Part shown: positions 7,735 through 59,694 of the stretch, in pieces
How the letters are laid out: every line of letters begins with the position of its first letter
How positions within the stretch are numbered: the stretch's first letter is position 1
From: a virus
Reading direction: 5' to 3' (one strand)
IMG/VR virus record: IMGVR_UViG_3300025892_002268
Location: 32,115 to 96,114 of that record
Length of the DNA: 64,000 bases
Position numbers and translations under genes: made by a program
The notes under the pieces: generated by a model
What the model was told of the DNA's origin: nothing
The model's database searches: none
The model's input: only the letters and a program-made list of their open reading frames with translations

Positions 7735-8160
7735 ATGAAAAACAAAATAGGTTGGCAAAAATACGAAGCGCTATTAGAAGAGCAGATGTCTTCTACATTC
7801 ATAACAGACTTATTGAAAAATTCAGTTGACGCTATGACAGAAGAAGACAATACTGAAGAAACGGCGTATCAAGACCAAGAAGAACAAATTGATGATAGTG
7901 ATTCTATCATGATACCTATGAGTTCCAAACTTATAGAAGATGCTATGATGATTACCAATTTTGACTGTTGGTTGGGTCATACTAATTTTGATATTACTCC
8001 TCATGTTAAAAGAATACTAGACAGTACACAAGGCGTTGAGCTATTACGTGTAATGAGTAGGTATCGTTTTTTCATAGGAGTTGGAAAGATGTTTGAATTT
8101 ACAGAAGTGCGTAAGAATATTGAAGAACAATTAACTCAGGAGACTACGGATGAAAATTGA
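7735..8160 (+). CDS. hypothetical protein
   Basis: 141 aa ORF in operon. Confidence 0.65.
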   Translation: MKNKIGWQKYEALLEEQMSSTFITDLLKNSVDAMTEEDNTEETAYQDQEEQIDDSDSIMIPMSSKLIEDAMMITNFDCWLGHTNFDITPHVKRILDSTQGVELLRVMSRYRFFIGVGKMFEFTEVRKNIEEQLTQETTDEN

Positions 8161-8635
8161 AAATTGCATAAATGTAAGAATTGAATCAGCTATGAAGAAT
8201 ACGGACATAACCAAGATAATGCACAAAGCATCATCTAAATTTATTAGAAGTTTAGATCCAGACATTATTTATACATGTGAAATAAATGCTTTATGGAAAT
8301 CTTTATTAAATTTTAAGCCTGAAAAAAACACTAAGTTTACAACGTATTTATACAAAGGTGTAATTATAGAGTGCCTAAAAGCTCTTAAGTTTGAAAAAAA
8401 GAGTAATTTATGTAGCAAATCTTTGCATGAAAACATAGCTTTGGCAGATACTGAAGATAGCTTTATGTTTGAAATTTTAGATGAATTAGAAACAGAGGAA
8501 GAACAAGAATTGATTATAGATAAGTATAAAAACCTTACTATACAAGAAATGTCTTCCAAAAGAGCTTATAGTCGTGAAACGGTTAGAAAAAAGCTAAAAA
8601 AAATATATAGCAAGTTGAGCGAAAATCTTGATTAG
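8150..8635 (+). CDS. phage-encoded sigma70-family sigma factor (regions 2 and 4 only)
   Basis: ALWKSLLNFKPEKNTKFTTYLY (region 2.2-2.3) and LTIQEMSSKRAYSRETVRK (region 4 HTH); SD AGGAG. Confidence 0.75.
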   Translation: MKIENCINVRIESAMKNTDITKIMHKASSKFIRSLDPDIIYTCEINALWKSLLNFKPEKNTKFTTYLYKGVIIECLKALKFEKKSNLCSKSLHENIALADTEDSFMFEILDELETEEEQELIIDKYKNLTIQEMSSKRAYSRETVRKKLKKIYSKLSENLD

Positions 8636-8708: not shown

Positions 8709-9356
8709 ATGGCTACAACAACAGCCCAAGGTAGTGGTTCAACCGTTAATGATGGTGGAACTGTAGTAAATGGTGGCAATATTGCTTCTGACGGTCCAAT
8801 GACTAACAACAGAAGTCTTGTAGAACTTGCCGATGGTGGGACAGATTATGGTTCTAAGGTCGTACAAAAAAACGTTCCTAGTTCTAATGACTTCTCTGGA
8901 GTTATTGGAGCAAAAGGCGTTGGCGTTGGAACCTTAGCCTTTGCGCCAAATGCCCAAGAGGGAGAAAGAAATTTCTTAATCAGAGGCGCTGGCACAGCTG
9001 AAGGTAATAATGAAATAAATAACTCTTCCAGCGATCTGCTGGTCCTCCCTGCTTCTGAAGTTGCTTTAAGACAGGTTAATCCAATCCACTTAACGATTGC
9101 TACTCGTCAACTTGGCGAGGATGATGCTACGTTTGATGTATTGGCAAGACCTTCAACTGCAATGGTTCCGGGGAGATCTAAGGGTACAGACGCTGGATCT
9201 GTTTCAACGTTTGTCAATCCTGCTGATGGTACTGCCGCCGTTGCGACAGAAATTCTACCAAGTAGAGCAGTTCCGGGCGAGCTTACTTACCACTTTGGTT
9301 CGTTATCCGCTCCTACGACTGACGAATATAAAGCAAGAGATAGTTACGAAGTATAA
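8709..9356 (+). CDS. putative virion structural protein
   Basis: G/T/S/A-rich 215 aa protein starting MATTT; own SD and terminator. Confidence 0.55.
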   Translation: MATTTAQGSGSTVNDGGTVVNGGNIASDGPMTNNRSLVELADGGTDYGSKVVQKNVPSSNDFSGVIGAKGVGVGTLAFAPNAQEGERNFLIRGAGTAEGNNEINNSSSDLLVLPASEVALRQVNPIHLTIATRQLGEDDATFDVLARPSTAMVPGRSKGTDAGSVSTFVNPADGTAAVATEILPSRAVPGELTYHFGSLSAPTTDEYKARDSYEV

Positions 9357-9376
9357 TTTATATTATTATGAGTAAC

Positions 9377-9415
9377 GGGATAGCACCCTTCGGGGTGCTT
9401 CCCATTTTTCTTTTT
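9377..9415 (+). terminator. Rho-independent terminator with C(UUCG)G loop
   Basis: GGGATAGCACCC-TTCG-GGGTGCTTCCC followed by ATTTTTCTTTTT. Confidence 0.85.
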
Positions 9416-9435
9416 AACTACTTGGAGAAGCAGCA

Positions 9436-10029
9436 GTGAATGAAATTACCCCAGAAATTATAGCACTTATATGTGGTGGAATTAGCGGTATAACTGGGAT
9501 TATTACAATTATATGGAAGAAATTTTTGAAACCAATAGTAAAACTATGTAAAAATCAAGATTTCTTTATAGAATCTGTAGAAGAAATTAAAAAAGAATTA
9601 TCTACAAATGGTGGAAGTAGCCTTAAAGATGCTATTATAGATATGAAGGATACTGTCCATAGAATAGACAGAAGGCAGAAAATAATAGAACAAAGAACCA
9701 AAGCAGCATTACATTACAGCAACGAGGCGTTATTTGAAACAGATATAGCTGGCAGATTAGTCTGGAGTAATGCTCATTTTTGTAGATATGTAAGAGATAA
9801 TCCAAATGATGTATCGGGATTTGATTGGTTGGCTACAATCAAAGAAGATGAAAGAGATGAATTATTAAAAGAATTTCTATCATGCATAAAAATGAATAGA
9901 AAATTTAGTAAAGTTACACAAACACAAGATGGTAAAGAAATACGGATGTTGGGTTATCCTTATAAGATAACAGATGTAGAGCATGGTGGCTTTTTAGTTA
10001 GTATTATACCTAAAGAAGAAGAGGCTTAA
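9436..10029 (+). CDS. membrane-anchored coiled-coil + PAS domain protein
   Basis: TM (about aa 7-27), NGGSSLKDAI coiled coil, then PAS signature ALFETDIAGRLVWSNAHFC...GFDWLATIKEDER...TQDG; GTG start with SD GGAG. Confidence 0.75.
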   Translation: MNEITPEIIALICGGISGITGIITIIWKKFLKPIVKLCKNQDFFIESVEEIKKELSTNGGSSLKDAIIDMKDTVHRIDRRQKIIEQRTKAALHYSNEALFETDIAGRLVWSNAHFCRYVRDNPNDVSGFDWLATIKEDERDELLKEFLSCIKMNRKFSKVTQTQDGKEIRMLGYPYKITDVEHGGFLVSIIPKEEEA

Positions 10030-10030
10030 A

Positions 10031-10249
10031 ATGGCAGATAAAAATTCAGCAGCATTTACTTTAAATGTAACAGACTTAATAGATATTGCTAAAAATACAG
10101 CATTAGTAGCACTAGCTGCTGGCTTAACGTATTTTGGTGAAAATATGGCAGACTTAGATCTGGGAAATATTGGAGTTATGCTTGTTCCAATTGCCGCAGT
10201 AGTAATTAATACTATGGTTAAGTGGGCAAAAAATAACGTACCGGAGTAA
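10031..10249 (+). CDS. holin-like two-TM protein
   Basis: 72 aa with two hydrophobic segments and a basic C-terminus; lies between the PAS gene and the protease. Confidence 0.55.
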   Translation: MADKNSAAFTLNVTDLIDIAKNTALVALAAGLTYFGENMADLDLGNIGVMLVPIAAVVINTMVKWAKNNVPE

Positions 10250-10253
10250 AAAT

Positions 10254-11174
10254 ATGTTTAATAAACCAAAAGACTTACTTAAAGCTTACAAGGATGGCTT
10301 TGTAGGTTCATGGTGTGATCCCGAAGATACAGATAAACTATTAGGAGAACTGCCACATCCACTGTTTGGTGTGGCAGCTCCTGATTTATATGGAACTGGC
10401 AAAGGTAAAGTTGCATTATTATACAAGTCTGTACAAAAGTTTGATCCCACGTTTGGAGCGCACGAGCGGCAAACCACAGGCGATTGTGTTTCACATTCTA
10501 CAAGGAATTGTGTAGACGTTACACGATCTCATGAAATTATTGGTGGTGACAAAGAAGATTTTGTTACCCGCAGTGCTACTGAAGCAATTTATGGATCTAG
10601 AGGTCATGGCGGTCAAGGAATGGCTTGCTCAAAAGCTGCTAGGTTTACAAATAAAGATGGTGGCATTTTGCTAAGGAAGGATTACGGCTTTGTTGATTTA
10701 TCTAAATATAATAGTAGAACGGGAACAAGTTGGGGCAGGTCTGGAGTACCATTAGAAGTCAGAAAAGAAGGCCAAAAACATCAAGTGACAACTGTATCTC
10801 TTATAAACACCGTGGATCAGGCAAGAGACGCATTAGCTAATGGGTATGCTATAAGTGTCTGTAGTAATTATGGATTTTCTTCACGCCGTAGTCAACATGG
10901 TATAGCAAAAAAAAGCGGGTCATGGAATCACGCAATGTGCTGGTGTGCTATGGACGATTCTCACGAAGTATATAATGAAACTTTATTTTTAATTCAAAAT
11001 TCTTGGGGTACTTTTAATGGTGGCCCCAAGAGGTTTGAACAACCAGACGGTAGCTTTTGGATTAGAGAAAGAGATGCTGCTGGAATGTTGAGGCAAAACG
11101 GAGCTTGGGTATTTAGTGATGTAGATGGGTTTCCACCAAGAAAGGTCGATTGGACCATAAACGAGGTATTTTAA
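10254..11174 (+). CDS. papain-like (C1) cysteine peptidase
   Basis: QTTGDCVSH (oxyanion Gln and catalytic Cys), WNHAM (His), IQNSWG (Asn); no signal peptide. Confidence 0.85.
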   Translation: MFNKPKDLLKAYKDGFVGSWCDPEDTDKLLGELPHPLFGVAAPDLYGTGKGKVALLYKSVQKFDPTFGAHERQTTGDCVSHSTRNCVDVTRSHEIIGGDKEDFVTRSATEAIYGSRGHGGQGMACSKAARFTNKDGGILLRKDYGFVDLSKYNSRTGTSWGRSGVPLEVRKEGQKHQVTTVSLINTVDQARDALANGYAISVCSNYGFSSRRSQHGIAKKSGSWNHAMCWCAMDDSHEVYNETLFLIQNSWGTFNGGPKRFEQPDGSFWIRERDAAGMLRQNGAWVFSDVDGFPPRKVDWTINEVF

Positions 11175-14100
11175 TGGCATCTTTATTCAAGAATCTACAG
11201 ATACGAAGAGGAACGGCAGCAGACTTTAAAGCAACAGATCCAATATTAAAAGCTGGAGAACCAGCTATATCTTTAGATACTGGTGAATTAAAGATAGGCG
11301 ATGGAATATCTAAATGGTCTGATTTAGCCTATTTTTCAAGCGTATTAGTAAAAACAGCCATAGTCAACATACCTTCTATACAAGCTAATACTTCTCACAC
11401 TCTAAAAATACCGATAGATAGTATTTCTCTGGATCATGAATATGCTATTGTTACTGCTCCAGATTCTATCCTTCCTGACTATATTGATATTAGATATTCT
11501 TACGCATCTGATACAGACGAAGTATCTGTAGTATTAACTAATATTGATAATTCTGTAGTTGATGGAAATGCTAACGGTAATGCTTCAGTAGCTACTAATA
11601 ATGTTAAATTACATATTCTATGCTATATAACTGACGTTGTTACTGTAACTACTACCACAACAACAACTCCAGACCCAATTGTGGATGATGTATTCTCATT
11701 TGGATATAATGAATTTGGTCAATTGGGCTTAAAAGATAAGGCAAATAGGAATATCCCAACATTCATATACGATAATAATACTAAGTGGACACAGTTTGCC
11801 GCTGGAAATTATCACACTCTCGCTATAGACTCTGAAAACAACATACACAGCGTTGGCTATAATTATTATGGTCAACTTGGATTAGGAAACAGTGGAGGCG
11901 GGACAAATAGACTCTCATTAGAAAAGGTGAGCAAGTCTTACTTTAAAGATGGTAGTGTATACTCCAACAATCCTCAGTGGAGATATATATCGGCGGGTTC
12001 GTATCACTCTCTAGCAGTCGATGTTAGTGGTAATTTATTCACATGTGGAGATGGTTCATATGGAGCTTTGGGACTAGGCCATCAAGTTGGTGTTAATGAA
12101 TTTACACTAGTTGGACAGCAATACTATTTTATAGATCTGGATAGACTTACAGAAAATAGTACAGATGGATCTTGTTTTACACTTAATGAAATCTCAGATC
12201 CTAAATATAAATTTGTAGCTAATGGCGATGGAGAATACATAATATCTGGTATTCCAATAAGTAATCCTGTCACTGTAACAATTCCGTATACTAACGGGGT
12301 AAGGGGCGGTGGTTTAGATGGCAAATGGTTCAAGGGTGATGATCAATTACTTGCTTACAGTGGAGAAAATCTAGAGACTACTGTAGGAACTAAACATTAT
12401 TTTTCAGGGAACATATCTATAGATGTCTCTGGTGATTATGGAGCCATATCGCTTCATTCGCTAAATGATAATATGTGTAACTACAATGAAATCATACACT
12501 TTCAAAGTCCTAATGCTAGCTGGGAAGATATATCAGCTGGGAATCACCATTCTTTAGGTGTAAAGAACTCTGGACTGTATGCTTGGGGACATAATAGCTA
12601 TGGTCAGGTTGGAACTGGTAATCATGAAGATGTCCTTATTCCAACCTTAGTAGGTGGAAGTAAATATTATTCACAAGTTGCCGCCGGTAAAAATCACTCT
12701 TTAGCTTTAGACTCAGACGGTACAGTTCATAGCTTTGGCAATAATCTTTATGGACAATTAGGTATAGGTAATGCTTCTCACAAGGATACTCCAACTCCAA
12801 TTCTTTTTGATTTTTCACAGATAAGTGATAGCAATTTCACCAACCTTCCTACAGATGCTAATTGGAATAATGGTGATGGAATATATTTTACACCTCCACT
12901 GGCTACTGAAACTTCTTACAATCCTATAGAAAGATATGTCTTAGAAGAAGGTACATACATTATTAGAAATGTTCCTTCTACGCATCCTATAGCTATTTTA
13001 AACGGAGGTGTAGAAGATAAGATAACATATAGTGGAGATAATAATGCTGGATGTTTATCAGTAAATCAAACTACTTCTGATGGTAAATATAATTTTTACT
13101 GGGGTGATGTTTATATTACTGTAACAGGAGATTTTGAAAAGGTCAGTATTTACTGCGCCAATCATGGATATATGGGTGGCAAAAACTTATTCTTTTACGC
13201 AACTCCTTCTTATAATCCTGAAAATATATCTGCTGGTACAAATCATACGGTAATAAGAACTGATACAGATCAAGTTTTAACTTTTGGTCGTAATAATTAT
13301 GGTCAATTAGGAACTGGAGATAATCAAGACAGAAATGTTCCCTTTAGAGTTAGTGAAGATAATATTAAATATATAGACGCTGGTGGAGACCATACGCTTT
13401 TTGTTGATTCAAGTAAATACATATGGTCTTTTGGAGACAATCAACATGGAGAGTTGGGATTAGCAGATAATATAGCTAGATCTACACCTGAAAGATTGAA
13501 CAACTCTATCAGGTGGAAAAATGTATATGCTGGAGGCAGCCATTCCTTTGCTACCGTTTTTGCTTTTTATCCCAATGTTCCTTCTAATTTTAAAGTCCAA
13601 AATGCAGACGACAGTAACCTAGTAGGCAATAGGCAGTTAATGTTAAGCTGGAATCACGTTACGGCGTATGATGAAGCGATTACTCACTACGTAATAGAAT
13701 ACTCAGCAGATAATGGAAATAGTTGGGTAGTCTATGACAATGAGGCTTTAGCTTATAAGTTCTACACTGATAGTTTCTTAGGAGCTACCAGAGAAGATAC
13801 ACAAAGTACAACATTTAGCTACATAATTGACAGTCTAGACAATACATACAATTATCTAGTAAGAATCGCTGGCGTAAATGCTACTGGTACTGGTCAATAC
13901 ATAACAAGTAGCCAGCCAGTTTCTCCAAAGGAAGCAGTAGATTTAGATTTTGCTAATGTACTTCTCTATTCCCACTTGGACAATGGCAATATTGCAGATA
14001 TATCAAATTACACTTGGCCTCATACCGCTTACTTTAATACGAATGCTACCAGATACCTCGATGGTAACTTTGGAGAAGCTTTGAGATTATATGAGTATGA

Positions 14101-14623
14101 CGGAATAAAATATGATGCTAATCTACACTTAGACGGAGAATTTACTATTGAATTCTTTATTAATCCAAGAAATTACGCAGCTGACACTAGCTCAAGCCGT
14201 TCCAATCCTATCATAACACTTAAAAAGAATAGCGAAGAATTTTTGAGGATGGCTTATAACGGTTCAGACGCATCTACCTATACATTTTCACTTTATAAAC
14301 AGGATGAAACAACTAGCCTAGCAAGCGTTCCTTTGACAGAAATTAATCAGCAAAAGGTGGAAGGATTTGCACATATAGCAATAACAAGAACTAGCGGCGC
14401 TCCAGATAATCCATCTAGCGTAGAAGTTGTAAGATTGTTTTACAATGGATTACTAATTGATAGTGGTAGAGATGTAACAGAGTATGATATTAATAATATA
14501 CTTCTTGGATCTGGTATGAATAGTTTTTATGACTTTGACATAGATGAATTCAGAATTACTAGCGGCGTTAGGTACGATCACGAACAAAGCTTTAATCCCA
14601 CTACTAAACCATTTGGAATTTAA
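11174..14623 (+). CDS. tail fibre/adhesin: Mtd-N-like domain, RCC1 repeats, cupredoxin-like inserts, FN3, LamG/ConA-like
   Basis: QIRRGTAA...GEPA...DTGELKIGDG; repeated FGxNxYGQLG / AGxxHSL; SWNH...HYVIEYS...YLVRIAGVNATGTG; FTIEFF...HIAITR...IDEFRITSGVRY. Confidence 0.85.
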   Translation: MASLFKNLQIRRGTAADFKATDPILKAGEPAISLDTGELKIGDGISKWSDLAYFSSVLVKTAIVNIPSIQANTSHTLKIPIDSISLDHEYAIVTAPDSILPDYIDIRYSYASDTDEVSVVLTNIDNSVVDGNANGNASVATNNVKLHILCYITDVVTVTTTTTTTPDPIVDDVFSFGYNEFGQLGLKDKANRNIPTFIYDNNTKWTQFAAGNYHTLAIDSENNIHSVGYNYYGQLGLGNSGGGTNRLSLEKVSKSYFKDGSVYSNNPQWRYISAGSYHSLAVDVSGNLFTCGDGSYGALGLGHQVGVNEFTLVGQQYYFIDLDRLTENSTDGSCFTLNEISDPKYKFVANGDGEYIISGIPISNPVTVTIPYTNGVRGGGLDGKWFKGDDQLLAYSGENLETTVGTKHYFSGNISIDVSGDYGAISLHSLNDNMCNYNEIIHFQSPNASWEDISAGNHHSLGVKNSGLYAWGHNSYGQVGTGNHEDVLIPTLVGGSKYYSQVAAGKNHSLALDSDGTVHSFGNNLYGQLGIGNASHKDTPTPILFDFSQISDSNFTNLPTDANWNNGDGIYFTPPLATETSYNPIERYVLEEGTYIIRNVPSTHPIAILNGGVEDKITYSGDNNAGCLSVNQTTSDGKYNFYWGDVYITVTGDFEKVSIYCANHGYMGGKNLFFYATPSYNPENISAGTNHTVIRTDTDQVLTFGRNNYGQLGTGDNQDRNVPFRVSEDNIKYIDAGGDHTLFVDSSKYIWSFGDNQHGELGLADNIARSTPERLNNSIRWKNVYAGGSHSFATVFAFYPNVPSNFKVQNADDSNLVGNRQLMLSWNHVTAYDEAITHYVIEYSADNGNSWVVYDNEALAYKFYTDSFLGATREDTQSTTFSYIIDSLDNTYNYLVRIAGVNATGTGQYITSSQPVSPKEAVDLDFANVLLYSHLDNGNIADISNYTWPHTAYFNTNATRYLDGNFGEALRLYEYDGIKYDANLHLDGEFTIEFFINPRNYAADTSSSRSNPIITLKKNSEEFLRMAYNGSDASTYTFSLYKQDETTSLASVPLTEINQQKVEGFAHIAITRTSGAPDNPSSVEVVRLFYNGLLIDSGRDVTEYDINNILLGSGMNSFYDFDIDEFRITSGVRYDHEQSFNPTTKPFGI

Positions 14624-14625
14624 CC

Positions 14626-15429
14626 ATGAGTGAAAATAAAAGTGCTAGCCATATAAAATTTAAAAGAGATACAGAAACAAATCTTGCTAGCTATATAACA
14701 ACCGTGGGAGAGCCAGTATTATCAACTGATACTAAATTAGTTAGAATTGGTGATGGTGGATCTCATTCAATTATTAGTCCTTTAGCAGATCGTGCATATA
14801 CTGACGATCAAGACGCTATAACATTAGCTTCAGCCAAGACTTATACTGATACAGAAATTGGTTCTTTAATTGACGGCGCTCCCGATGCTCTGAATACTTT
14901 AAATGAAATTGCATCAGCTTTAGATGATAATCCAAACATTTTAGACATTGTTGAAAAAGTCATAAGCGTCGGAGAAATTAGCAATGTCTCTGGAACAAAG
15001 AATGATTGGGATTTAGAATCTGTAGATACTAATTTCATTAAAATCAATCCTAATGGAGCATTGACAATTACGGGAATATCTTCTGCATATACTCATAAAA
15101 AATTTACGATTGCAAACTCATCATCGTCTTATAGCATTACACTTGTTCCACAGGCCACAGCTAGTCAAGGTGAAAATCAATTAAGGTTCTTAGAAGGAAT
15201 TGGAGCTGTTCTAGATCCTACAGAGCAAGCAGATTTTATATATGACAGCACTAATGAAGAATGGATAGTCATTAAAAGTGGCGTAAACTCTAACGTTAGG
15301 CCTGTCATAAATGCTGGTGAAACAGAAGTAAGTGGCGTGTATAATATGGTAATCATTAGTAGTGCAGCATATACTAACTTACAAAGTAGCAACAATACAG
15401 ATCCAAATACAATATACTTCGTTCCATAA
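14626..15429 (+). CDS. tail fibre protein
   Basis: IKFKRDT...GEPV...DTKLVRIGDG; LIDGAPDALNTLNEIASAL; C-terminal AYTNL...DPNTIYFV. Confidence 0.75.
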   Translation: MSENKSASHIKFKRDTETNLASYITTVGEPVLSTDTKLVRIGDGGSHSIISPLADRAYTDDQDAITLASAKTYTDTEIGSLIDGAPDALNTLNEIASALDDNPNILDIVEKVISVGEISNVSGTKNDWDLESVDTNFIKINPNGALTITGISSAYTHKKFTIANSSSSYSITLVPQATASQGENQLRFLEGIGAVLDPTEQADFIYDSTNEEWIVIKSGVNSNVRPVINAGETEVSGVYNMVIISSAAYTNLQSSNNTDPNTIYFVP

Positions 15430-15439
15430 GGGGTAAATA

Positions 15440-16204
15440 ATGCCAGATTATAGCAAAACAAGAATTCAATTACGTAGAGGAACAGCTGCTGAATTAGCTG
15501 CTGCTAATCCAGTTTTAGGACAAGGTGAACCCGCATTTGCTACAGATACAAACAATCTAAAAATTGGTGACGGTTCAACAGCATACTCCAGCCTCAGCGC
15601 GATCTCTGGTGGTGGTGGCGGTGGTGGATCTGAAGTAAACGATTTAACGGCAAGTGTAACTTGGGCCAATGTGCCAGATGCTAACATTACCGAGAGTTCG
15701 GTTGTTCAACATTCTGGAGCTTTACAAGTCACCGAATCGCAAGTAGTAGACTTGGGGTCATATATCACAACAGAAACAGACCCTGTTTTTATCGCACATA
15801 CTGTTAATAGCATTACGGATGGGACCGGCTTGTTACAAAATGATGGAGCGGGCAATTGGAGTTACGATAACTCGACATATTTAACCTCAGTGACAAACAT
15901 AGATACAACTAATTTTAATGCAACAGCAATCGTTACAGAGACTGAAGGTATTAGTAGCAACGATAATGATACTACTCTACCTACATCGGCGGCTGTAAAA
16001 GATTATGTAGATAATAACGCTGGTACTACCTATACGGCTGGCGATGGATTGACTCTTACTGGCACAGAATTTAGTGCAGATTTATTAAGCGACACTTCCG
16101 CTGTTGCTAATTCTGTGCAAATTACAAACATCGTAGCTATTAGTCAGAATAATTATAATTCCTTGGGTAGCTATGACGCTAATACTCTTTATTACATAAC
16201 ATAG
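15440..16204 (+). CDS. tail fibre protein with Mtd-N-like domain
   Basis: RIQLRRGTAAELAAANPVLGQGEPAFATDTNNLKIGDG; PTSAAVKDYVD; YTAGDGLTLTGTEFS; C-terminal DANTLYYIT. Confidence 0.8.
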   Translation: MPDYSKTRIQLRRGTAAELAAANPVLGQGEPAFATDTNNLKIGDGSTAYSSLSAISGGGGGGGSEVNDLTASVTWANVPDANITESSVVQHSGALQVTESQVVDLGSYITTETDPVFIAHTVNSITDGTGLLQNDGAGNWSYDNSTYLTSVTNIDTTNFNATAIVTETEGISSNDNDTTLPTSAAVKDYVDNNAGTTYTAGDGLTLTGTEFSADLLSDTSAVANSVQITNIVAISQNNYNSLGSYDANTLYYIT

Positions 16205-16211
16205 GCTTATT

Positions 16212-17135
16212 ATGAAATTTGGATCTACAGACATTTCGCAACACTATGTTGGTTCATCGTTAGTTCCACGTATTTATAACTGTGAAGATACTAGTTATAT
16301 ACTAAACGAAACCGCCTTTGATGCAGATGTTTTAATCATTGGTGGTGGTGGAGGTGGTGCTACTTCACTTGGAGGTGGTGGTGGTGGTGCTGGTGGGTAT
16401 AGAACATTTACTAAAAAATATTACACTGGAACAAACTATACCGTAACCGTTGGTGCTGGTGGATCAGCTAATTCTACGGGAAGCGATTCTTCAATAGAAA
16501 GAATTGGCTCAGGCGGTGGAGCTGGTGGCACAACAACCGGCGGCAACGGTGGTTCGGGTGGTGGAGGACAGGGTTTTAGCTCTTTTTCTGGTGGATCGTC
16601 CACATCGCCAAGATGCAACGGTTCTGCACAAGGTAATGGTGGAAGCGGAGGGAACGGCACATTTGCCCAAGGTGGTGGAGGAGGTGGCGCTTCTACTGCT
16701 GCTTCTGGTGCTGGCAATGGAGGCAATGGAACAGCTAGTTCAATTACAGGATCTAGCATAACAAGAGCTGGCGGTGGAGGCGGTGGAGACACAACTGCTG
16801 GGTTTGGATTTGGTAGTCCTAGTCCCGGTTCTGGAGGTTCTGGTGGAGGTGGCAATGGTGGTTCTGGCAATACTTCTGGTAATGCATCACTAGCCGCTGG
16901 AGCAAACGCTACGGCAAATACAGGATCTGGAGGAGGAGGAGGTGCTTACTACAAAGACGGCGGTAGCAACAGCAGTGGTGCTGGAGGTAATGGTGGTTCT
17001 GGATTTGTTGTTTTAAAATACCCCAACACAAAAACAATTACCGTTGGAGCTGGATTAACTTCATCCACAATTACAGCTGGAGATTATAAAATCACACAAA
17101 TTACAGCTGGCACAGATACAATAAGTTTCTCATAA
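16212..17135 (+). CDS. glycine-rich tail fibre-associated protein
   Basis: LIIGGGGGG...GGAGG, YTVTVGAGG, ANTGSGGGG and GGSGFVVLKY Gly-rich domain typical of aquatic phage fibres. Confidence 0.8.
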   Translation: MKFGSTDISQHYVGSSLVPRIYNCEDTSYILNETAFDADVLIIGGGGGGATSLGGGGGGAGGYRTFTKKYYTGTNYTVTVGAGGSANSTGSDSSIERIGSGGGAGGTTTGGNGGSGGGGQGFSSFSGGSSTSPRCNGSAQGNGGSGGNGTFAQGGGGGGASTAASGAGNGGNGTASSITGSSITRAGGGGGGDTTAGFGFGSPSPGSGGSGGGGNGGSGNTSGNASLAAGANATANTGSGGGGGAYYKDGGSNSSGAGGNGGSGFVVLKYPNTKTITVGAGLTSSTITAGDYKITQITAGTDTISFS

Positions 17136-17144
17136 GGATATAAC

Positions 17145-17528
17145 ATGGCACATTACGCTTTACTGGATGAAAACAACATTGTCACACAAGTCATCACTGG
17201 AATAGACGAAGGTGGTGATACTGATTGGGAAGCATACTACGCTGATAAAACAGGACAAACTTGCAAACGAACATCTTATAATACAAAATTTGGTATTCAC
17301 ACAGAAGGTGGTACTCCCTTTAGAAAAAACTATGCTGGCATTGGATATTTATATAATCAAGAAAAAAATGCATTTATTCCTCCAAAGCCGTATAATAGTT
17401 GGGTTCTTGTAGAGGACTCATGCGATTGGAAAGCTCCCGTTCCCATGCCAACAGAACCGTTAGCGGAAAACGAATTTTATGTTTGGAACGAACAAACAAC
17501 GAGTTGGATTATTTCTAATTTGGAATAG
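17145..17528 (+). CDS. tail fibre accessory/assembly-like protein
   Basis: MAHYALLDENNIVTQVI, RTSYN, FRKNYAGIG, AFIPPKPYNSW and WKAPVPMP, a family commonly found after Gly-rich fibre genes. Confidence 0.7.
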   Translation: MAHYALLDENNIVTQVITGIDEGGDTDWEAYYADKTGQTCKRTSYNTKFGIHTEGGTPFRKNYAGIGYLYNQEKNAFIPPKPYNSWVLVEDSCDWKAPVPMPTEPLAENEFYVWNEQTTSWIISNLE

Positions 17529-17644: not shown

Positions 17645-17887
17645 ATGGCAATCGTATCAACAACAGACGTAGTAACAAATCCAGACACTAGTAGAGAAGT
17701 TGCTAGAAATGCAAGTGTAGTATGCACATGCTTTCCCACGGGAGAATCTTTTACTGTGAATACAAATACAGATAGTAATTTTGTAAACTTCGACACAAGC
17801 TTAACCTATGCAGCACTTGAAACGTTATATACTGCAAGGTTTGACGACATTGCTTATTACAATGCTGTTGATGGGGGTACTCCATGA
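17645..17887 (+). CDS. hypothetical (possibly virion) protein
   Basis: 80 aa with SD AAGGAG. Confidence 0.65.
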   Translation: MAIVSTTDVVTNPDTSREVARNASVVCTCFPTGESFTVNTNTDSNFVNFDTSLTYAALETLYTARFDDIAYYNAVDGGTP

Positions 17888-18258
17888 AAAGAATTCTGGA
17901 AGTTGCTTTCATTATAATTGTGGGTTTAATTTTAATTAATACACAAAATGTTATTAAAGATAGTAACCCTTGGTCAAATGGTTTTGATAATAATTTTAGT
18001 TGTAATACTGATGCTATAACTAAAATGTATGCAGGGTATGTAGAGCAATGGAAAAAAGATATTGCTTATTCATTTGACGAAGCAGAAAAAGAAATATATG
18101 GATCAAAGCCTATTCCTGACATTGTGGGTCCAGACCCCGACCCAAAGAAATGCATATGTAAAGGAAGTGGAGTTATAAAACAAGGAGATGGTCATACAAC
18201 ACCTTGTCCTTATCATGGAAGTAAATATATTAGACCTCTCATCATACTGGAGAATTAA
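17884..18258 (+). CDS. membrane/exported protein with Cys/His zinc-finger-like tail
   Basis: N-terminal hydrophobic helix; PDPDP linker; CICKGSG...PCPYH. Confidence 0.65.
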   Translation: MKRILEVAFIIIVGLILINTQNVIKDSNPWSNGFDNNFSCNTDAITKMYAGYVEQWKKDIAYSFDEAEKEIYGSKPIPDIVGPDPDPKKCICKGSGVIKQGDGHTTPCPYHGSKYIRPLIILEN

Positions 18259-18534
18259 ATGGAAATTGATACAGAAACTTTATTAAGAATTTTTGCAATA
18301 GTTATTGCTGGCTCGTTATTAGTTTCAGGTTTTAACTTATCAAAGCCTTTAGATTATATAAAAAATTTATTTAAGAGAAGAACTCCTGTTACACCAGACT
18401 CAAATAGCGAAGTGTCTTTCTTGCAAATAGTAGATTCTTGGCACACTTTAAGAAGTCAGTGTGAACAATATGGATTAAGAGATGCCGTAGAAAAAATTGA
18501 CGAGGTATTTCCTCTATTAAACACGGAGGACTAA
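18259..18534 (+). CDS. membrane-anchored hypothetical protein
   Basis: N-terminal TM, PVTP linker, helical C-terminus. Confidence 0.65.
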   Translation: MEIDTETLLRIFAIVIAGSLLVSGFNLSKPLDYIKNLFKRRTPVTPDSNSEVSFLQIVDSWHTLRSQCEQYGLRDAVEKIDEVFPLLNTED

Positions 18535-18536
18535 TA

Positions 18537-18998
18537 ATGAAAAAGAACTTTATTGCTATAGTATTGTTGCTATACGCTGTTTTTGGTGGCGGTACGCTTG
18601 ACTTATTAGATAAACCTATCCCAAAACCAGAACCAGAAGCTAAGATATTAAATATAGATAAGCCCAGCGAAGATGTAATAGATAGAGTTAAAATATTCTC
18701 TAGTCTCATTACAGAGCCAAGCGACAGAGCTAAAATTGCTATTTTTAATTATCAGTTTGCAGAAAGAGTATTAGGATATGAAACTACAAATCAACAAGTA
18801 AATGATGTATATTCGTTAGCTGGTAAAACTTTCTTCAAACAAGATCTAGTAAATAAATATGATGGTTTAGCTGAAAAGATTGTAGAACTGTTAGAAGAAA
18901 TTCTATCTGAAGATAATGCAGTAGTTTCTCAAGAGCAAAAACAAAAACTGAATGAATATTTTATGGGTGTGTCTTGGGTTTTAATTCAAAAGGATTAG
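18537..18998 (+). CDS. membrane-anchored/exported hypothetical protein
   Basis: MKKNFIAIVLLLYAVFGGG signal/TM; KPIPKPEP linker; SD GGAGG. Confidence 0.65.
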   Translation: MKKNFIAIVLLLYAVFGGGTLDLLDKPIPKPEPEAKILNIDKPSEDVIDRVKIFSSLITEPSDRAKIAIFNYQFAERVLGYETTNQQVNDVYSLAGKTFFKQDLVNKYDGLAEKIVELLEEILSEDNAVVSQEQKQKLNEYFMGVSWVLIQKD

Positions 18999-19001
18999 AT
19001 T

Positions 19002-19634
19002 ATGTCGCCAAAAGAAATTAGTGAAGTGTTGTTTAAAATTTTTAGTGATGAAGGTTTTGCAGTAAATGGAATCAAAGTTAAATCTGAAAGTCCTTTGACT
19101 GCAAATATCAATAGCGAAAACGGTCGAACCACTATTAGCTTTGGAAATAATTTTCCTAGAGCAGAAATAACTAAGATCATTACTCTCTATGCATATATAG
19201 AAGAATTAATTTTTGAAAAAGAAGGTGGTACTATTAGACTGAGGAACTTTCCAGACATTAGTTTTGGATACGGTAAGTCTTTACTGAGAGAGTTTTTAGA
19301 TCATATAACTTTTGCAGGCCAAAATGATTTTGCTGATTGTATAGAACAAAAATACTCAGACCCAACAAAAAGAAAAATCGCTACAGACTGCTTGCAATAT
19401 GCTAACGAATGGGCTACAATAGTGAGTCAATCTGGAGGGTTTTGTGGAATAAACTCGTCAGATAAAATTGCTCTTAAAAAACAATGCCAAGACTTTGTTG
19501 TAGATAATGTCAGAAGGAACGCAAGAGAGAAAAAATATGGGTCCGTAGTATTGACGTATCTCTTAGTATTTATTATAATTCCAGCAGTTGCCAGATTTAT
19601 TATTGTAAAGTTGCTTGACAAATATTTTGATTAA
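19002..19634 (+). CDS. C-terminally anchored hypothetical protein
   Basis: C-terminal TM VVLTYLLVFIIIPAVARFII. Confidence 0.65.
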   Translation: MSPKEISEVLFKIFSDEGFAVNGIKVKSESPLTANINSENGRTTISFGNNFPRAEITKIITLYAYIEELIFEKEGGTIRLRNFPDISFGYGKSLLREFLDHITFAGQNDFADCIEQKYSDPTKRKIATDCLQYANEWATIVSQSGGFCGINSSDKIALKKQCQDFVVDNVRRNAREKKYGSVVLTYLLVFIIIPAVARFIIVKLLDKYFD

Positions 19635-48398: not shown

Positions 48399-51300
48399 CT
48401 AGCTAAAAGTTGCTTTAATATAGTTATGCATTTGTATGCCAGTTGTGATATCTGGATTGTTATGTAGGGCTATTCCTATGTCATTATGGCAGTACGTAAA
48501 AATCTCGTATTCTCCGGGGAATGGGCTATTTTGATTATCATCTATTGCTACCTGTGTCGATCTAACACCTACAACACGCTTCTGTCCAGCCTCACTGGGT
48601 TTACTAACCCTTACCATGCCGCTCTGGTCTTTAGGTCCATAGTCCCACATGGGCCTTTCCCAGCAGTAGGCTCTAGAGAACGATACAGTCGCTGATCCTC
48701 CTCCGTTTGGGTTAGTTACCAACATTTCTACAGGCGTATCAAAAGCTTGTGGATCAAACCCTTCTCCTCTGCAAGTATAATTATACTCTTCGTCTTCCTC
48801 TTCGCTTCTATCTGGTATAATTAAAGGACAGTTTTCAGATTCTGTATTGCCAGTAGCACATTCTTCCTTAAAGTCTGAACTATTAGCAATTACAAAACTC
48901 GTAATTCCACCGTTTGCATCTATTGCTGTAACTTTAATAGCTACTCCTTGGGATAATAAACACCTTTGATCTACTTCAAACCCATCGCCACTATCAACAA
49001 CAGCTAGTGTTCCACCAACTCCAATAACTTTTTTGTCATACTTATATCCGTACTTAGTTACAAGTTGACCTCTTCTATCAAATTTGCTTATCCATAACTT
49101 TTTGGATTTTAATTCTATATCAGGGCTTACTACTCCTACCGCAATCTCATCTGATGATAATGCATATCCCGGAGTGTAAATTATCTTTCTAGAGTTTTCA
49201 ACTATCGCATAGTTTGTTTTTGTTGGAACAGTATAATCAACTCTAGTTTCCAAAGCTTTAGTTTTTACTGTAATTTTTTCAAATTTTGCTTCTCCAGAAT
49301 TCCAACTATCAACTTCTGTTTCTACTTCTGCGCCAATGGAACCATGCGGTGCAGGGTTGAAATGAAGAGGTTGTGCGTATTGAGACAACCATAGCGTATC
49401 TTCTCTAGGCCAACCGTCGTATACTTGTACATGCAAAGCGGCTGTTCCAAAACTTTCAATCCTGTCCATAGAAGACCCCCATACAACAGTGGTTCCCTGT
49501 ATGGTCTTTCCTCTAGTATCATTTACCCAACTTCCAATAAATGGCAGTATGGTAAGATTAATGCTACCACCACCACCACCCCCATAAAAAACACCTTGAG
49601 TGCCAAACACTTGCTCAGTATCCACATTTAAAGTCCAGTTTCCATTTCTAAAAACTAAACGTCTACCACACGTTGTGCCTACAGCATTCGCGCCAAGATA
49701 CTGAGGATTGAGATTATCATCTCCGAACATATCATAGCAACCTTGAGGTCTATGGAATTGGCTAGGCTCTTTTTGCACAAAAGCGTCATACTTTGGACCA
49801 GCATATGTTTGGCTAGTAGTATAAAGATGTTCGCCAGCATCACTTTTAGAAGCTACATTGCCAAATGACGCATTGCCAAAAAGGTTTGTGCCCGGAGCCA
49901 TGCCATGAAATTGGGCTGCGCCGTCATAAAAATTTCTACACTGTTTTTCTGTACCACTAAAGTTACCAGCATCTATAATTCTAGTTGTAGAGTCAAGATG
50001 AGCATAAAGTTCTGCTGAACAAAGAGAAAACTGTATAGTATTAGCATCATTTGGTTTAGCATTCCAACCACTCGCGTATATGTAACGATTAGGTGAGGAT
50101 CTCAAGTTTGATATTTCTGCTGGAGTACCACCGTTTATTTTTAAAATTAAATCCTGATGGTCTTCAATTGGAGAACCATCATACTCTCCCGAAGAGTTTT
50201 TAAATGGCCCAAGGGTGGCTACTTCTGCTGGAATTTGAAATTCACTTCTATCCTTAAACTTTTTACCAGCATACCCCCCATTAAACACTGGTCCCCAAAA
50301 CATATTAATCTGTTGAACATCTAAGTCATCAATTATTACTGATGTCGAATCTTGAGTAGGAGCAGCAACATTAATTCTTTCACTATAAGCATTGTCTGGC
50401 AAAGTTCCAGTTGTGGTATTTGGTCTACCTAGACTGCTTTTAGTTTGATTAAGAGCGTTATCTTGAAAGTAATCAATAGAGAGTAATCTAGTTTCATTAG
50501 TATTGTAAAACTTATCATAAACAAAATCAATAACTTCATCGCCAGCCTGTACAAAATCTCCATTCGTTAGTCTAAAATAATCGTCAGAACTAGCTAAGAA
50601 TTTAGAAAACAACCACGGACCTTTAAAAGCAGGAGGTCGTTCTTGTATAACGCCTTCTCCGCTAATTTTAATTAACAAATTTTCTCCATCAATCTGCATG
50701 ACTAGAGCTATTTCACCTTTAGAAAATAGTTGAGTAGTCCTATTTACAACTCTAACTTTTTCAACTTTAGTCTTACTGTCATACTTTACTATATTGGGAC
50801 CAAAAGATCGAGGATTATTATCTTGTACAGTCATAGGCATAGCTGATCCGGTTTTAAAATCTGACACAGAAGCTGATGCTGAACCTCCATAAAAGTAATC
50901 AGAATCATAGTCCAGACCATCGGGAGATACGGCTGGATCTAATATCTCAGCAGCGTCTATATCATCTAAAAGCATACACAAAAAACTAGAACTAGATTCC
51001 CACATTCCTTCTGTATGATTGTATATCATTTTTAAAGGAGCCGATACCATAGAAGCGAAGTCTGATTCTGTTATATTTACCTTACCAACATATACTCCAG
51101 TGTCCTCTTTTAAAGATTGTTTAAAAGCGTACTTAGCCCCACTGCGCCTTCTGGGGTGGGCCGTAAACATGGTATCTGATTTGAAGGCTGGAACGCGATT
51201 AGTTGATTCTTGGTGTTTTTTATGAAAATAAAGCTTCACACTTTTAGAATAACCATTATCATCCAACAGGTCTTTTCCGGTTGTCCAATTTCTATTAGCA

Positions 51301-51692
51301 ATCAAACATCCTTCAGGGCTATTTTGAATTTGTGCAATTTTCTTTTCTTTGTTAGATAAATTAGCTGTTTCTATCCTTTCTTTATAAGGCGTATCATTAA
51401 CATAGTCTAACAACTCAATCAACTCATTAAGTGTGTAAGTTTTAATAGTATAGCCACCAGAAGCGTCATACAACTTGTGTTGAAAAGAAACTGCTCCATA
51501 CTCTGTAGTCAAAAAATTAAATATATCAAAACCAGCATAATCATGTAGTGGTCCGGGCAAGTTTGAGTTTGATTCTTTTATTATTTCTTTAAAATCTTCT
51601 CTACTCATAACAGCCAATCCATAGCGTTGTAATCCCGCTATGTAAAAATAGTGTCCAGCTGGCAATGAACTTATAGCATTTCCTTTGTGCAT
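48399..51692 (-). CDS. large virion structural protein (baseplate/tail)
   Basis: 1097 aa; VVDSGDGF...VTAIDANGGITSFVI repeat type seen in baseplate/fibre proteins. Confidence 0.6.
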   Translation of the reverse strand: MHKGNAISSLPAGHYFYIAGLQRYGLAVMSREDFKEIIKESNSNLPGPLHDYAGFDIFNFLTTEYGAVSFQHKLYDASGGYTIKTYTLNELIELLDYVNDTPYKERIETANLSNKEKKIAQIQNSPEGCLIANRNWTTGKDLLDDNGYSKSVKLYFHKKHQESTNRVPAFKSDTMFTAHPRRRSGAKYAFKQSLKEDTGVYVGKVNITESDFASMVSAPLKMIYNHTEGMWESSSSFLCMLLDDIDAAEILDPAVSPDGLDYDSDYFYGGSASASVSDFKTGSAMPMTVQDNNPRSFGPNIVKYDSKTKVEKVRVVNRTTQLFSKGEIALVMQIDGENLLIKISGEGVIQERPPAFKGPWLFSKFLASSDDYFRLTNGDFVQAGDEVIDFVYDKFYNTNETRLLSIDYFQDNALNQTKSSLGRPNTTTGTLPDNAYSERINVAAPTQDSTSVIIDDLDVQQINMFWGPVFNGGYAGKKFKDRSEFQIPAEVATLGPFKNSSGEYDGSPIEDHQDLILKINGGTPAEISNLRSSPNRYIYASGWNAKPNDANTIQFSLCSAELYAHLDSTTRIIDAGNFSGTEKQCRNFYDGAAQFHGMAPGTNLFGNASFGNVASKSDAGEHLYTTSQTYAGPKYDAFVQKEPSQFHRPQGCYDMFGDDNLNPQYLGANAVGTTCGRRLVFRNGNWTLNVDTEQVFGTQGVFYGGGGGGSINLTILPFIGSWVNDTRGKTIQGTTVVWGSSMDRIESFGTAALHVQVYDGWPREDTLWLSQYAQPLHFNPAPHGSIGAEVETEVDSWNSGEAKFEKITVKTKALETRVDYTVPTKTNYAIVENSRKIIYTPGYALSSDEIAVGVVSPDIELKSKKLWISKFDRRGQLVTKYGYKYDKKVIGVGGTLAVVDSGDGFEVDQRCLLSQGVAIKVTAIDANGGITSFVIANSSDFKEECATGNTESENCPLIIPDRSEEEDEEYNYTCRGEGFDPQAFDTPVEMLVTNPNGGGSATVSFSRAYCWERPMWDYGPKDQSGMVRVSKPSEAGQKRVVGVRSTQVAIDDNQNSPFPGEYEIFTYCHNDIGIALHNNPDITTGIQMHNYIKATFS

Positions 51693-51704
51693 TATTAACT
51701 CCTG

Positions 51705-54700
51705 TTAGTCATAATATGATACGTCTTCATCATTATCTAGGTCGTCTAAATAAATCATTCTATCAATAGGTTGTTTTATATTAGGCAAAACATAGTGCCA
51801 AGTAAACGAAGCGGGATGGAACATTTCATCATTAGAAGTCGCTATACTATTAAAATAATTCTTATGATATTGAAATCTACTTTGAGCCATTATAGCGCTC
51901 ATCTCTGAAGCGTCTTGTGAGCTTTGCATGGCGCTATTTTTGATCATCAGCCCACTTCCAACAAAATCACCTTCTGGTGGTTTTTCTGGATCATACGACG
52001 TATTATTTATTATTGCTTTAGTAGGCTGAAAATCATATGTGGAAATATTATTATTCTTAGTCTCTCCTCGTTCCAAAGGAGTGCTATGATCTCTTCCGTA
52101 TGATCTATTTCTTTGCACTGTATCAATATAAGATTCTAATCTTTTTTGACCCTCAGCAAAATTAAAATTACTTTTAGAGTTAATAATATTTTTTCTTATC
52201 AGTTTGTTCCTTTGGTCTGTAAGTTCTCTTCCCATGCTAGCGACTTTTTTTAATTGATCTGATCTTTGTTTTTGCATCTTACCAAAAGAGGGAGTATACG
52301 AATCCATAGTTACAGTAGTCTTTACTCCTTGCGTACTAAAGTCTACATTAATACTAGTTATAGCGGGACCATTATTTAGTAAGCCAGCGACAGTCAAGCC
52401 GCTAGGCCAGCCTACCATGTTAAATGACGCTCTCTCGTTAGATAAATCACTTGCAACAGTTCTTGAGGATAAAAGGCTTCCAGCTTCATTCATTCCATTG
52501 TAGCCATTATAATTCCAAGGAGTTAACGATTCGTCTGAAATGTATTCAAGCCTACCGTTATCTGTTGAGGATGTCATCCAAGGACCGTAAGTTCTACGGT
52601 TACTCGTCAAAGGAAGAGCTACTACCATAGGAAAAACTGGCCCCGGTGATGCCATATTAATTCTTCTATTGATTGAAAAAGTTAAACCTTCAACGGCTTT
52701 TTCATACGCTGTACCATCACTACCTTGAATGTCATAATCTTCTACTTTGAAACCAGCTGGTAATGTGGGAATGGTTGACATTCCGGGCATACCTATAACA
52801 ACGTCTTCTCTAAGATAATGAGTTAAATTTGCTAAGTTTACTTTATTTGCCATTCCTTCTTTGTAGAGACCCTCCTCTGTGTATGCAACTCTGGGCAAGG
52901 TTATTAATACATATACATCTGCCCCCTCTGTGTAATAATCAAATCCTGAATTATTTTTAGCTCTGATAAGATCAATTGTCAACAATGTGGCGTTACCACT
53001 ACTGCCTTTAGATGGATGATAAATCGCTGGTCTAATATATTTTGCTTCAGTAGAATTTCCCGTCTCAGGATTAATCATTTTTACATTATCTTCGTCTAGT
53101 TTTTCAACTTTAAAAACGCTTTGCCCATAAACGGGGAATGTTCTTCTTATTGTGGGCGGGCCAAAATAGTATTCAGCGTCCATCTCTGCCTTTGCAAACA
53201 AAGTTGTCGGTGGAGTAGGTGCGCCGTTTGGAGTACCCGGAGGTGGAGTTGTATATGAAAATAATTCATCCGGGAAAGGTTTGTGCATTAAAAAACTGCT
53301 TGGATCTAAACCATCGACATCCATTTCTTTATAGGCAGGTGGATATCTTACATATGCAGGGGTTCGACCATTGCTAGAAAAGAAATTTGTCAGAAGAGGT
53401 GGACTGAGATTTAGTTCTTTTACAGCCCCATTATTACCCCAAGGTATAGCTGGATCTCTTCCTCCTTCTGGCTCTGGATTATAACTAAATTCATAACTTC
53501 CAGCATTAGCATTGTAACCTATCTCTAATGCTCCTTTGTCTCTAGGATTTTTTGGAAGTGGTGTTGCTAACATAAGATCTTTTTTCGCTAAATTCCAAAC
53601 CTTCCCACCGCCAGAAATGTATTGAGTATCAACACTTCCATCAGCTAACCTTTTAATAAAACCAAAAGGATTACCTAAGCCATAACCCGTATTGGGTTTT
53701 TGTGGAATTTTTACTAAAAATTTCTTACCTAGACACTGATCAGTTACGTTCTTTAAAAAAGCGTACAGAGTCTTTGCATTTTCCAAACCATCCTTGGCAA
53801 AAAATCCCATAGCTGCTGTCTCAAATGCATCTGCTTGATTTCTACTTGAGTTAGGCTGTTTTTCATTTGCGTTATTTGGTCCCGGACTAAAAGTACCCTT
53901 ATTCTTTTTAATCGGATTTTTCTGTGGACCATTGCCACCACCTGCTTTTCTAGCATTGTTAGGATTTAACCCTGTTGCGCCACCTCCAGCCGTTATTCCA
54001 ATGGCAGTAGCTCTTCCAAAGTAAAGCGGATATCCATAAGGTGGACTGCACATTCCGGGGTTAAGTCTCCAAGCTGCCATATCATCTGGATGAGGGGGCC
54101 AACAACATCTAGGAACAGTACATTCAACAGATCCTCCATTCCAATCTCTATCATCGTTAGGTCCATCAATAATCTGTCCAGCGTTAACTTTTTCCATGAA
54201 AAGTACATTATAATTTTGAAGAAATTCTACCCATTTGTCAAAGGATATATCAACAGCTCTCAGTTCTAATTCAGTAGCAATATAGTAGTTGCCAACCCCA
54301 GCAGCCTTGCAAGCAGAAGAATCTAACAATATTTGAGTCCACGGTCCAACGCCTCTGGGTATAGTAACTATCTTGCTGCCAAGAAGACCATAGTATGGAA
54401 TAACTTGCTTTTTATACATCTTCTCCAACCTATGCATACCATGTCGAGTGTATGGATAATTATCATGAGCTGCATCAAAGTAATACATATTTGTTTCTTT
54501 TCCACCTGTAACAAATTTGTCCGTCACTTCAGTTGCTAACTCTTGACCTATATCTTTACTTTCTAAATCGAATGGTAAATTTTCTATGTAAGACGCGCTT
54601 ACCTCACCACTACTAGAGTTCCTGTTTATAGTTGATATTTTAATTACGCCAGATATTTTTATATCCGGGTTGGTCTCAGCGTTTGGTCTAGTTACTGATC

Positions 54701-55889: not shown

Positions 55890-55905
55890 TATGTTCTCCT
55901 ATAGT

Positions 55906-59692: not shown

Positions 59693-59694
59693 TT

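Follow-up and report, generated by a model that had tools for sequence, protein, structure and literature searches.

A papain-type protease beside a holin-like protein in an uncultured marine phage: a candidate late lysis module

Organization of the locus

We analyzed a 64,000-nucleotide stretch of viral DNA (positions 32,115 to 96,114 of the IMG/VR record IMGVR_UViG_3300025892_002268; hereafter the window, numbered from its first letter) and focused on three genes at 9436-11174, which code for a membrane PAS protein (PAS197), a small holin-like protein (h72) and a papain-type cysteine protease (C1_306). A preliminary description of the window had pictured them as three tightly coupled genes behind a hairpin with a UUCG loop. 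The open reading frames (ORFs) were recovered exactly as it had placed them, co-oriented and with gaps of 1 nt (PAS197-h72) and 4 nt (h72-C1_306), and each is preceded by a Shine-Dalgarno-like site. Besides, the stop codon of the protease gene overlaps the start codon of the next gene, which codes for a tail fibre (TAATG). This overlap argues for late co-expression of the cassette with the tail fibres.

The gene order p123-p141-sigma-like-p215-PAS-h72-C1, followed by variable tail fibres and then by m124, m91, m153 and m210, was found in 27 viral contigs, and about 20 related ones share the trio, so the synteny of the trio that the preliminary description had proposed to look for in related phages is real. 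L013, L016, L017 and L021 lack the fibre genes and have m124 directly after the protease gene; wherever these genes are lacking, the protease gene directly precedes m124-m91-m153. We therefore regard the fibre region of the window (11174-17528) as an insert, and 17884-19634 as part of the same unit as the trio. The module continues past the fibre insert and is larger than three genes.

The C1-type protease

C1_306 (10254..11174, plus strand; 306 amino acids) is a predicted C1-like peptidase with the residues Q73, C78, H226 and N249. Its AlphaFold2 (AF2) model, with a predicted local distance difference test score (pLDDT) of 93.6, has the papain fold with both L and R domains (Foldseek E 2e-10). 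The closest structural match was xylellain (3OIS; Z 21.8 over 233 residues, root-mean-square deviation 3.0, 19% identity), papain and cathepsins followed with Z 17-20, and all papain-type superpositions covered 200-247 residues. Among 46 diverse homologues, down to 32% identity, Q73, C78, H226 and W251 are invariant and N249 and S250 are conserved in at least 90%, and the C1_306 profile aligns with both the Cys and the His/Asn blocks of caricain. These data agree with the preliminary description, which had recognized a C1 protease with an intact Gln/Cys/His/Asn set and no signal peptide; a hydrophobic N-terminus is absent as well. Against the Pfam C1 model (PF00112) C1_306 scored 20.0 bits, just below the cut-off of 20.7, and 5 of its 46 relatives matched this model at E <= 0.01. 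The family is therefore better described as a divergent sister of C1 than as a plain member. Assignment to CHAP or NlpC/P60 was considered and rejected, as those models were negative and the fold is that of a full-size C1A enzyme. Mature papains align from about residue 48 of C1_306 and zymogens from residues 3-7, which suggests that the N-terminal ~45 residues sit where the last part of the propeptide sits. No wall-binding domain was found in the C1_306 family.

Homologues of C1_306 were abundant in metagenomic data, with 1,647 hits at 90% clustering and 1,516 representatives at 50%; none of them has a name, and many come from Tara and other marine samples. When 50,697 phage records were searched by blastn and tblastn, neither matched the protease even at E 10. 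Scans of genome contigs with the window protein, and viral scans with the distant members P0270 and P0192, also found nothing. In BFVD, phage proteins with a C1 fold carry UniProt names suggestive of wall binding, such as "Peptidoglycan binding-like", "N acetylmuramidase" and "Copper amine oxidase"; these are names only.

A further feature of the family is its load of inteins: more than 35 of 150 protease representatives carry one at the catalytic Cys or immediately behind the catalytic His. The insert lies directly before Cys78 in at least 25 of the 150 (…TGD/C…HN/CVSH, slashes marking its boundaries) and directly after His226 in at least 15, and five carry both. Intein-bearing members lie among representatives P0121-P0268 and at loci L022, L025:3754-5745 and L029:6001-8742, and the intein of P0121 contains a LAGLIDADG_3 domain. 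Homing inteins persist in genes that a phage cannot lose, and this load at catalytic residues makes the protease gene look indispensable. In L029, an otherwise unrelated protease-bearing phage contig, an AAA-type ATPase gene (L029:10281-12962) also has an intein-like insert, ending HN/S, as judged by eye.

Putative partners of the protease

Four plus-strand genes of the module lie beyond the fibre insert. The product of m124 (17884..18258) appears to be exported and contains a linker rich in Pro and, at its C-terminus, a CxCxGxG...GDGH..CPxH knuckle; a lipobox is present in its counterparts in L015, L018, L019 and L028 and is missing from the window copy. The m91 protein (18259..18534) has an N-terminal transmembrane (TM) segment and a conserved C-terminal DEVFPLLN motif, m153 (18537..18998) combines an N-terminal membrane anchor with a predicted periplasmic helical domain, and m210 (19002..19634), which is conserved with the module, is tail-anchored by a C-terminal TM segment (residues 187-205). 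Neither these four proteins nor h72 matched Pfam, PHROG or NCBIfam, and hidden Markov models (HMMs) of spanins did not match m124, m91 or m153. When m153 and m124 are set against a two-component spanin, the N-terminal anchor of m153 is present, and the lipobox of m124 is found in the four relatives but not in the window. Neither a profile search of the PDB nor the ESM Atlas hinted at a fold for m153, and the idea that it hides a lysozyme-like domain was not supported by either.

Some of these genes are linked to the protease by fused forms of the enzyme. In about 15 representatives and in L029, an N-terminal TM anchor is followed by ~150 residues, after which come the core of the protease (from residue ~45) and a tail at the C-terminus. 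The m153 profile corresponds to the N-terminal domain of these anchored long forms (hhalign probability 97.8, E 1e-12, 123 columns) and detected 11 of them by hmmsearch (E 2e-9 to 2e-3). Similarly, the m124 profile matches long-form tails with a CxxCxGxG...C knuckle in P0212, P0164, P0190 and P0162 (E 9e-9 to 4e-4). Neither the N-terminal nor the C-terminal extensions of the long forms contain a Pfam domain. In L025 the same parts are separate genes, with an m153 homologue directly upstream of the protease gene and an m124-like gene directly downstream. Fusion in other phages thus ties the protease to m153 and m124, and the charge distribution at the anchors suggests, by the positive-inside rule, that the enzyme of the long forms is on the periplasmic side.

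These fusions bear on an alternative in which C1_306 works in the cytoplasm, on the maturation of virions or the take-over of the host, and the neighboring membrane genes are unrelated to it. Such a role would agree with the missing signal peptide and with the position of the gene next to tail fibre genes. However, the fibre block varies and several relatives lack it, known prohead proteases have other folds, and in other phages the enzyme is joined in one polypeptide with a membrane anchor and the exported domains m153 and m124. Such anchored fusions make maturation of proheads or fibres an unlikely task, and we consider a cytoplasmic function of any of these kinds very improbable.

Another TM family, with a GP(D/E)KK motif, was observed upstream of protease genes in a viral contig (L025:2566-2970) and in three Planctomycete prophage-like regions (L038:9872-10276, L039:6767-7420 and L028:8679-9170). 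The L025 and L038 members share 36% identity (E 3e-11), the match of L025 to L039 is weak (E 0.006), and L028 was assigned by eye only. A likeness of this family to LL-H holins was considered and found no support in Pfam or PHROG.

The holin-like protein and the PAS protein

The gene for h72 (10031..10249, plus strand; 220 homologues) lies 4 nt upstream of the protease gene and codes for 72 amino acids with two hydrophobic segments, a weaker one at about residues 22-37 and a strong one at 45-63, as would be expected of a holin encoded beside its lytic enzyme. The connecting loop is acidic, with invariant E37, N38 and D43. In the ESM Atlas, its neighbors were viral clusters automatically named "Holin family protein" (0.95 and 0.94), with a weaker r1t-holin cluster (0.88), which we take as a lead to its identity and not as proof. 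A homologue is located 0.9 kb upstream of the protease gene in one Planctomycete genome (E 4e-7); no match was detected among the 50,697 phage records, and NCBIfam was negative. The size and the two hydrophobic segments on which the preliminary description based its holin-like protein are therefore real, and the link to a described holin family did not materialize.

The single strong TM segment of PAS197 (9436..10029, plus strand; GTG start, 197 amino acids, 380 homologues) spans residues 8-26 and is flanked by acidic residues on its N-terminal side and by KK on its C-terminal side. This pattern suggests an N-out segment, so that the remainder of the protein, including the PAS domain, would be cytoplasmic. 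The AF2 model, built from a 23-sequence alignment (pLDDT 78.8), contains two long helices (6-57 and 61-93) joined at a conserved TNGGxSLKD hinge, followed by a PAS-fold domain at about 95-192. This domain is of a beta2-alpha-beta3 type, with strands at 98-102, 108-111, 157-163, 168-177 and 183-192 and helices between them. All top Foldseek matches were PAS or LOV domains (E ~4e-5, target TM-score up to 0.72), and the Pfam PAS model (PF00989) was passed narrowly (23.1 bits, cut-off 22.6, E 7.9e-5); the score against TIGR00229 was just below threshold (20.5 versus 22.9). Model, Foldseek and Pfam thus agree on the PAS fold that had been predicted, and no output domain follows it. The TM segment of the preliminary description was recovered as well, and its coiled coil was modelled just as the two long helices. 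The GRNCRFLQ-type motif of LOV domains was not seen in the PAS197 alignment when inspected by eye. Conserved S149-C150 and E182-H183 are candidates only for residues that contact a ligand or cofactor. The PAS and protease genes of L026, a relative of 106 kb, are broken up over several frames (L026:241-1950), either by sequencing errors or because the genes are decaying.

Search for canonical lysis genes and hints of a host

The window belongs to a viral contig of 96,114 bases with a GC content of ~36% and a CheckV-type completeness of 64%. Its genes include a split DnaE, DnaB, primase, a RecA/UvsX-like protein, ribonucleotide reductase and glycosyltransferases, and its DnaE is at most 34% identical to those of GenBank phages, with no close cultured relative. 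In six-frame scans of this whole contig and of four related records (94-136 kb), none of 12 muralytic Pfam families was found (Phage_lysozyme, Amidase_2, SLT, M23, GH108, M15_4, GH19, CHAP, NlpC/P60, GH25, M15_3 and Amidase_3), and the sole signal was one sub-threshold match of 13 bits. The lack of a recognizable lysozyme, amidase or CHAP gene, first noted for the 64 kb, therefore extends to five records, all of them incomplete. The ends of these records vary around the cassette, from ~42 kb upstream in this contig to ~110 kb downstream in G001, and together they probably cover most of a genome of ~150-165 kb, provided that gene order is kept.

Some relatives provided signs of holins within the module. 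In L021 a 60-amino-acid gene with two TM segments, located between m124 and m91, matches the PHROG holin family phrog_9987 (E 1.9e-4), and its orthologue in L013 weakly matches the holin family phrog_297. Against the phage-record collection the L021 protein gave chance matches only.

The protease profile was found in 7 of 401 genomes of Planctomycetota, the only phylum sampled, and one of these proteases carries its own membrane anchor. Anatilimnocola sp. NA78 encodes a distant homologue, P0231 (WP_425618062.1), in a region that resembles a prophage. There, multi-TM and TM proteins are located upstream of the protease, and downstream follow a knuckle lipoprotein, a coiled-coil protein with a TM segment and a protein with a CAP domain. 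The lipoprotein has the same knuckle as m124 (hhalign probability 70.9, E 3.8e-5). These genomes offer a hint of the Planctomycete-like host, or host with a protein-rich envelope, that the preliminary description had suggested. The GC content of 36% is no obvious fit, so a typical Planctomycete host is not indicated.

A possible lysis module and its alternatives

We interpret the locus as a module for late lysis in an abundant lineage of uncultured marine phages, with a C1-type peptidase as its enzyme and not a muramidase or amidase, an interpretation that we hold with a little less than even confidence. The envelope-directed module of the preliminary description, with a C1-type protease in the enzyme slot beside a small holin-like protein, does recur as a conserved arrangement. 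According to our proposal, the signal-less protease would accumulate in the cytoplasm, possibly kept latent by its propeptide-like N-terminus, until h72 opened the inner membrane late in infection. In the periplasm the protease would then meet the anchored m153 together with m124, an exported protein or lipoprotein, and could cut envelope links there, either the peptides of peptidoglycan or proteins connecting the wall with the membranes, after which the cell would burst. PAS197, as a membrane-tethered sensor on the cytoplasmic side, would be an accessory that may tune the firing of h72; this is the least supported step. A more far-reaching version, that a periplasmic C1 peptidase, its anchored partner and a Zn-knuckle lipoprotein form a new class of lysins in a widespread marine lineage and its relatives in Planctomycete prophages, with the PAS protein making the moment of lysis depend on metabolism, redox state or a ligand via the holin-like protein, seems unlikely to hold in full.

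Several points weigh against a C1-type lysis module. We know of no C1 peptidase that cuts peptidoglycan, and the case is purely computational. With regard to the membrane proteins, none of 13 h72 family members had a Pfam or PHROG match better than E 0.04, the C-terminal tail of h72 is short and weakly charged, and the holin match of L021 is modest (22 bits) and concerns a gene that is absent from the window genome. In addition, long forms stably anchored in the periplasm would be there before lysis, so that timing in those phages cannot depend on a holin. An unrecognized lysin could exist, as all five scanned records are incomplete (60-83%) and the GH108 and GH19 scans had no positive control. 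Finally, the PAS slot of L016 and L017 is filled by a TM and coiled-coil protein without a PAS domain, and no PAS gene was found in L013, L021 or L025, all of them short fragments. The PAS protein is the least constant part of the module and, being absent or replaced in some relatives, would be an accessory and not part of the core.

The question of an unseen lysin leads to an alternative in which the module serves lysis with the protease in an accessory role. Together with m153 and m124, the protease would carry out a spanin-like last step by cleaving proteins of the outer membrane or those that tether the wall, and a muralytic enzyme would be encoded elsewhere. The inner-membrane anchor of m153 and the Pro-rich m124, a lipoprotein in L015, L018, L019 and L028, are laid out like an i-spanin and an o-spanin, C1 enzymes normally cut proteins, and both the incomplete records and five large minus-strand ORFs without a PHROG match would leave room for such an enzyme. 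However, the twelve muralytic families were not found in the five records, it is the protease and no other enzyme that lies beside the holin-like gene, and m124, m91 and m153 match no spanin HMM. On balance, an accessory role of this kind appears improbable to us.

Alternatively, the anchored long forms, which resemble resident periplasmic enzymes more than released lysins, and the presence of the module in prophages raise the question of whether the system is lytic at all. A periplasmic protease could remodel the cell surface, for instance by removing receptors or pili against superinfection, or could process exported phage proteins under the regulation of the PAS protein. Tight coupling to late tail fibre genes is difficult to reconcile with such a role, as are the holin-family match inside the L021 module, the lack of other lysis genes and an intein load that suggests an indispensable gene. 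We regard a non-lytic envelope system as doubtful.

Neighboring features

Between the gene for the 215-amino-acid protein and the PAS gene lies a GC hairpin closed by a UUCG loop, with a T run behind it (9382..9409, plus strand), whose stem of 7 pairs occupies 9382-9399 (AGCACCC-TTCG-GGGTGCT). A GC hairpin is located in the same position in 13 relatives, which makes 14 genomes with the window, and the stem sequences differ. Since position is kept while the stems differ, we consider it a conserved RNA element between the 215-amino-acid gene and the cassette. It is terminator- or attenuator-like. Across the window span 9357-9435 and the same spot in L001-L027, the hairpin lacks the T run in several relatives, and for this reason it may be a processing or stabilizing element and not a plain terminator. 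The space between the hairpin and the cassette is too small for a sigma-70 promoter.

The protein encoded just before the hairpin (8709-9356) is rich in Gly, Thr and Ala, has 29-76% identity in relatives and no Pfam or PHROG match, and may be an abundant late protein. Always three genes upstream of the cassette is a small sigma-70-like protein (8150-8635) with weak matches to regions 2 and 4 and to phrog_351; it is a possible late sigma factor of the phage.

The plus-strand fibre block that splits the module (11174..17528) begins with a gene whose start overlaps the protease stop (11174-14623) and whose product has an Mtd_N head, RCC1 repeats and fn3, followed by further genes at 14626-15429, 15440-16204, 16212-17135 and 17145-17528. 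This block, with its Mtd_N, RCC1, fn3 and Gly-rich domains, is hypervariable: it is absent in four relatives and different in most others. Such variability suggests a host-range cassette lodged between the protease gene and m124. In a distant part of the window (48399-63837), five large minus-strand ORFs (1097, 1394, 499, 767 and 1380 amino acids) had no PHROG match at E 1e-4 and may represent an unrecognized virion or polymerase module.

Significance and comparison with known systems

For most uncultured marine phages the genes responsible for lysis have yet to be identified, and the whole module described here goes unnamed in annotation pipelines. If it is a late lysis module with a C1-type enzyme, it would add a new enzyme class, the full C1 papain fold, with periplasmic partners to the phage lysins. 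It would also explain the missing endolysin in a lineage with ~1,500 metagenomic protease clusters and would provide the first candidate for control of lysis timing by a sensor domain (PAS). The module is compact and testable in Escherichia coli, and its protease could point to a vulnerable link in the envelope of the hosts.

A literature search found no publication describing such a module, no C1-type endolysin and no PAS antiholin. Phage lysins of the papain superfamily listed in a review are limited to CHAP (C51/C104), NlpC/P60 (C40), Amidase_5 and PeiW/PeiP (C71) (PMC10318531). These lysins share with C1_306 a papain-like core with Cys and His, used by phages on wall peptides. In contrast, the CHAP and NlpC/P60 models match nowhere in the genome, and C1_306 corresponds to a full-size C1A enzyme with the Gln oxyanion residue, an NSWG motif and a propeptide-like N-terminus. 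Xylellain (3OIS), the best structural match, and other C1A peptidases and their zymogens share the catalytic residues with C1_306, whose short N-terminal extension overlays the portion of the propeptide that stays over the cleft in zymogens. The phage protein differs from them in its low identity (19%), a score below the Pfam C1 cut-off, its location in phages, its membrane partners and its frequent inteins.

With regard to export, the relatives of the protease resemble signal-anchor-release (SAR) endolysins in having an N-terminal anchor that would place the enzyme in the periplasm. However, these anchors are strongly hydrophobic and not rich in Gly and Ala, which makes release of the anchored relatives doubtful, and C1_306 of the window has no anchor. 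The T4 system of lysis inhibition, holin T with its antiholin RI, and other antiholins share with the PAS protein the idea of a membrane protein beside a holin that sets the time of lysis on a signal. RI acts through periplasmic domains, whereas the sensor of PAS197 is predicted to be cytoplasmic, and the proteins are not related in sequence.

The module also resembles the holin-endolysin-spanin cassettes of phages that infect Gram-negative bacteria (lambda S, R and Rz/Rz1), in that a small membrane protein is encoded directly upstream of a signal-less enzyme, a gene for a protein anchored in the inner membrane and, in some relatives, a lipoprotein gene lie downstream, and the position by the tail fibres is that of a late operon. 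The module described here differs in that its membrane proteins match no holin or spanin model, its enzyme has a C1 papain fold in place of a glycosidase, amidase or known wall peptidase, and it includes an additional PAS sensor and a tail-anchored protein.

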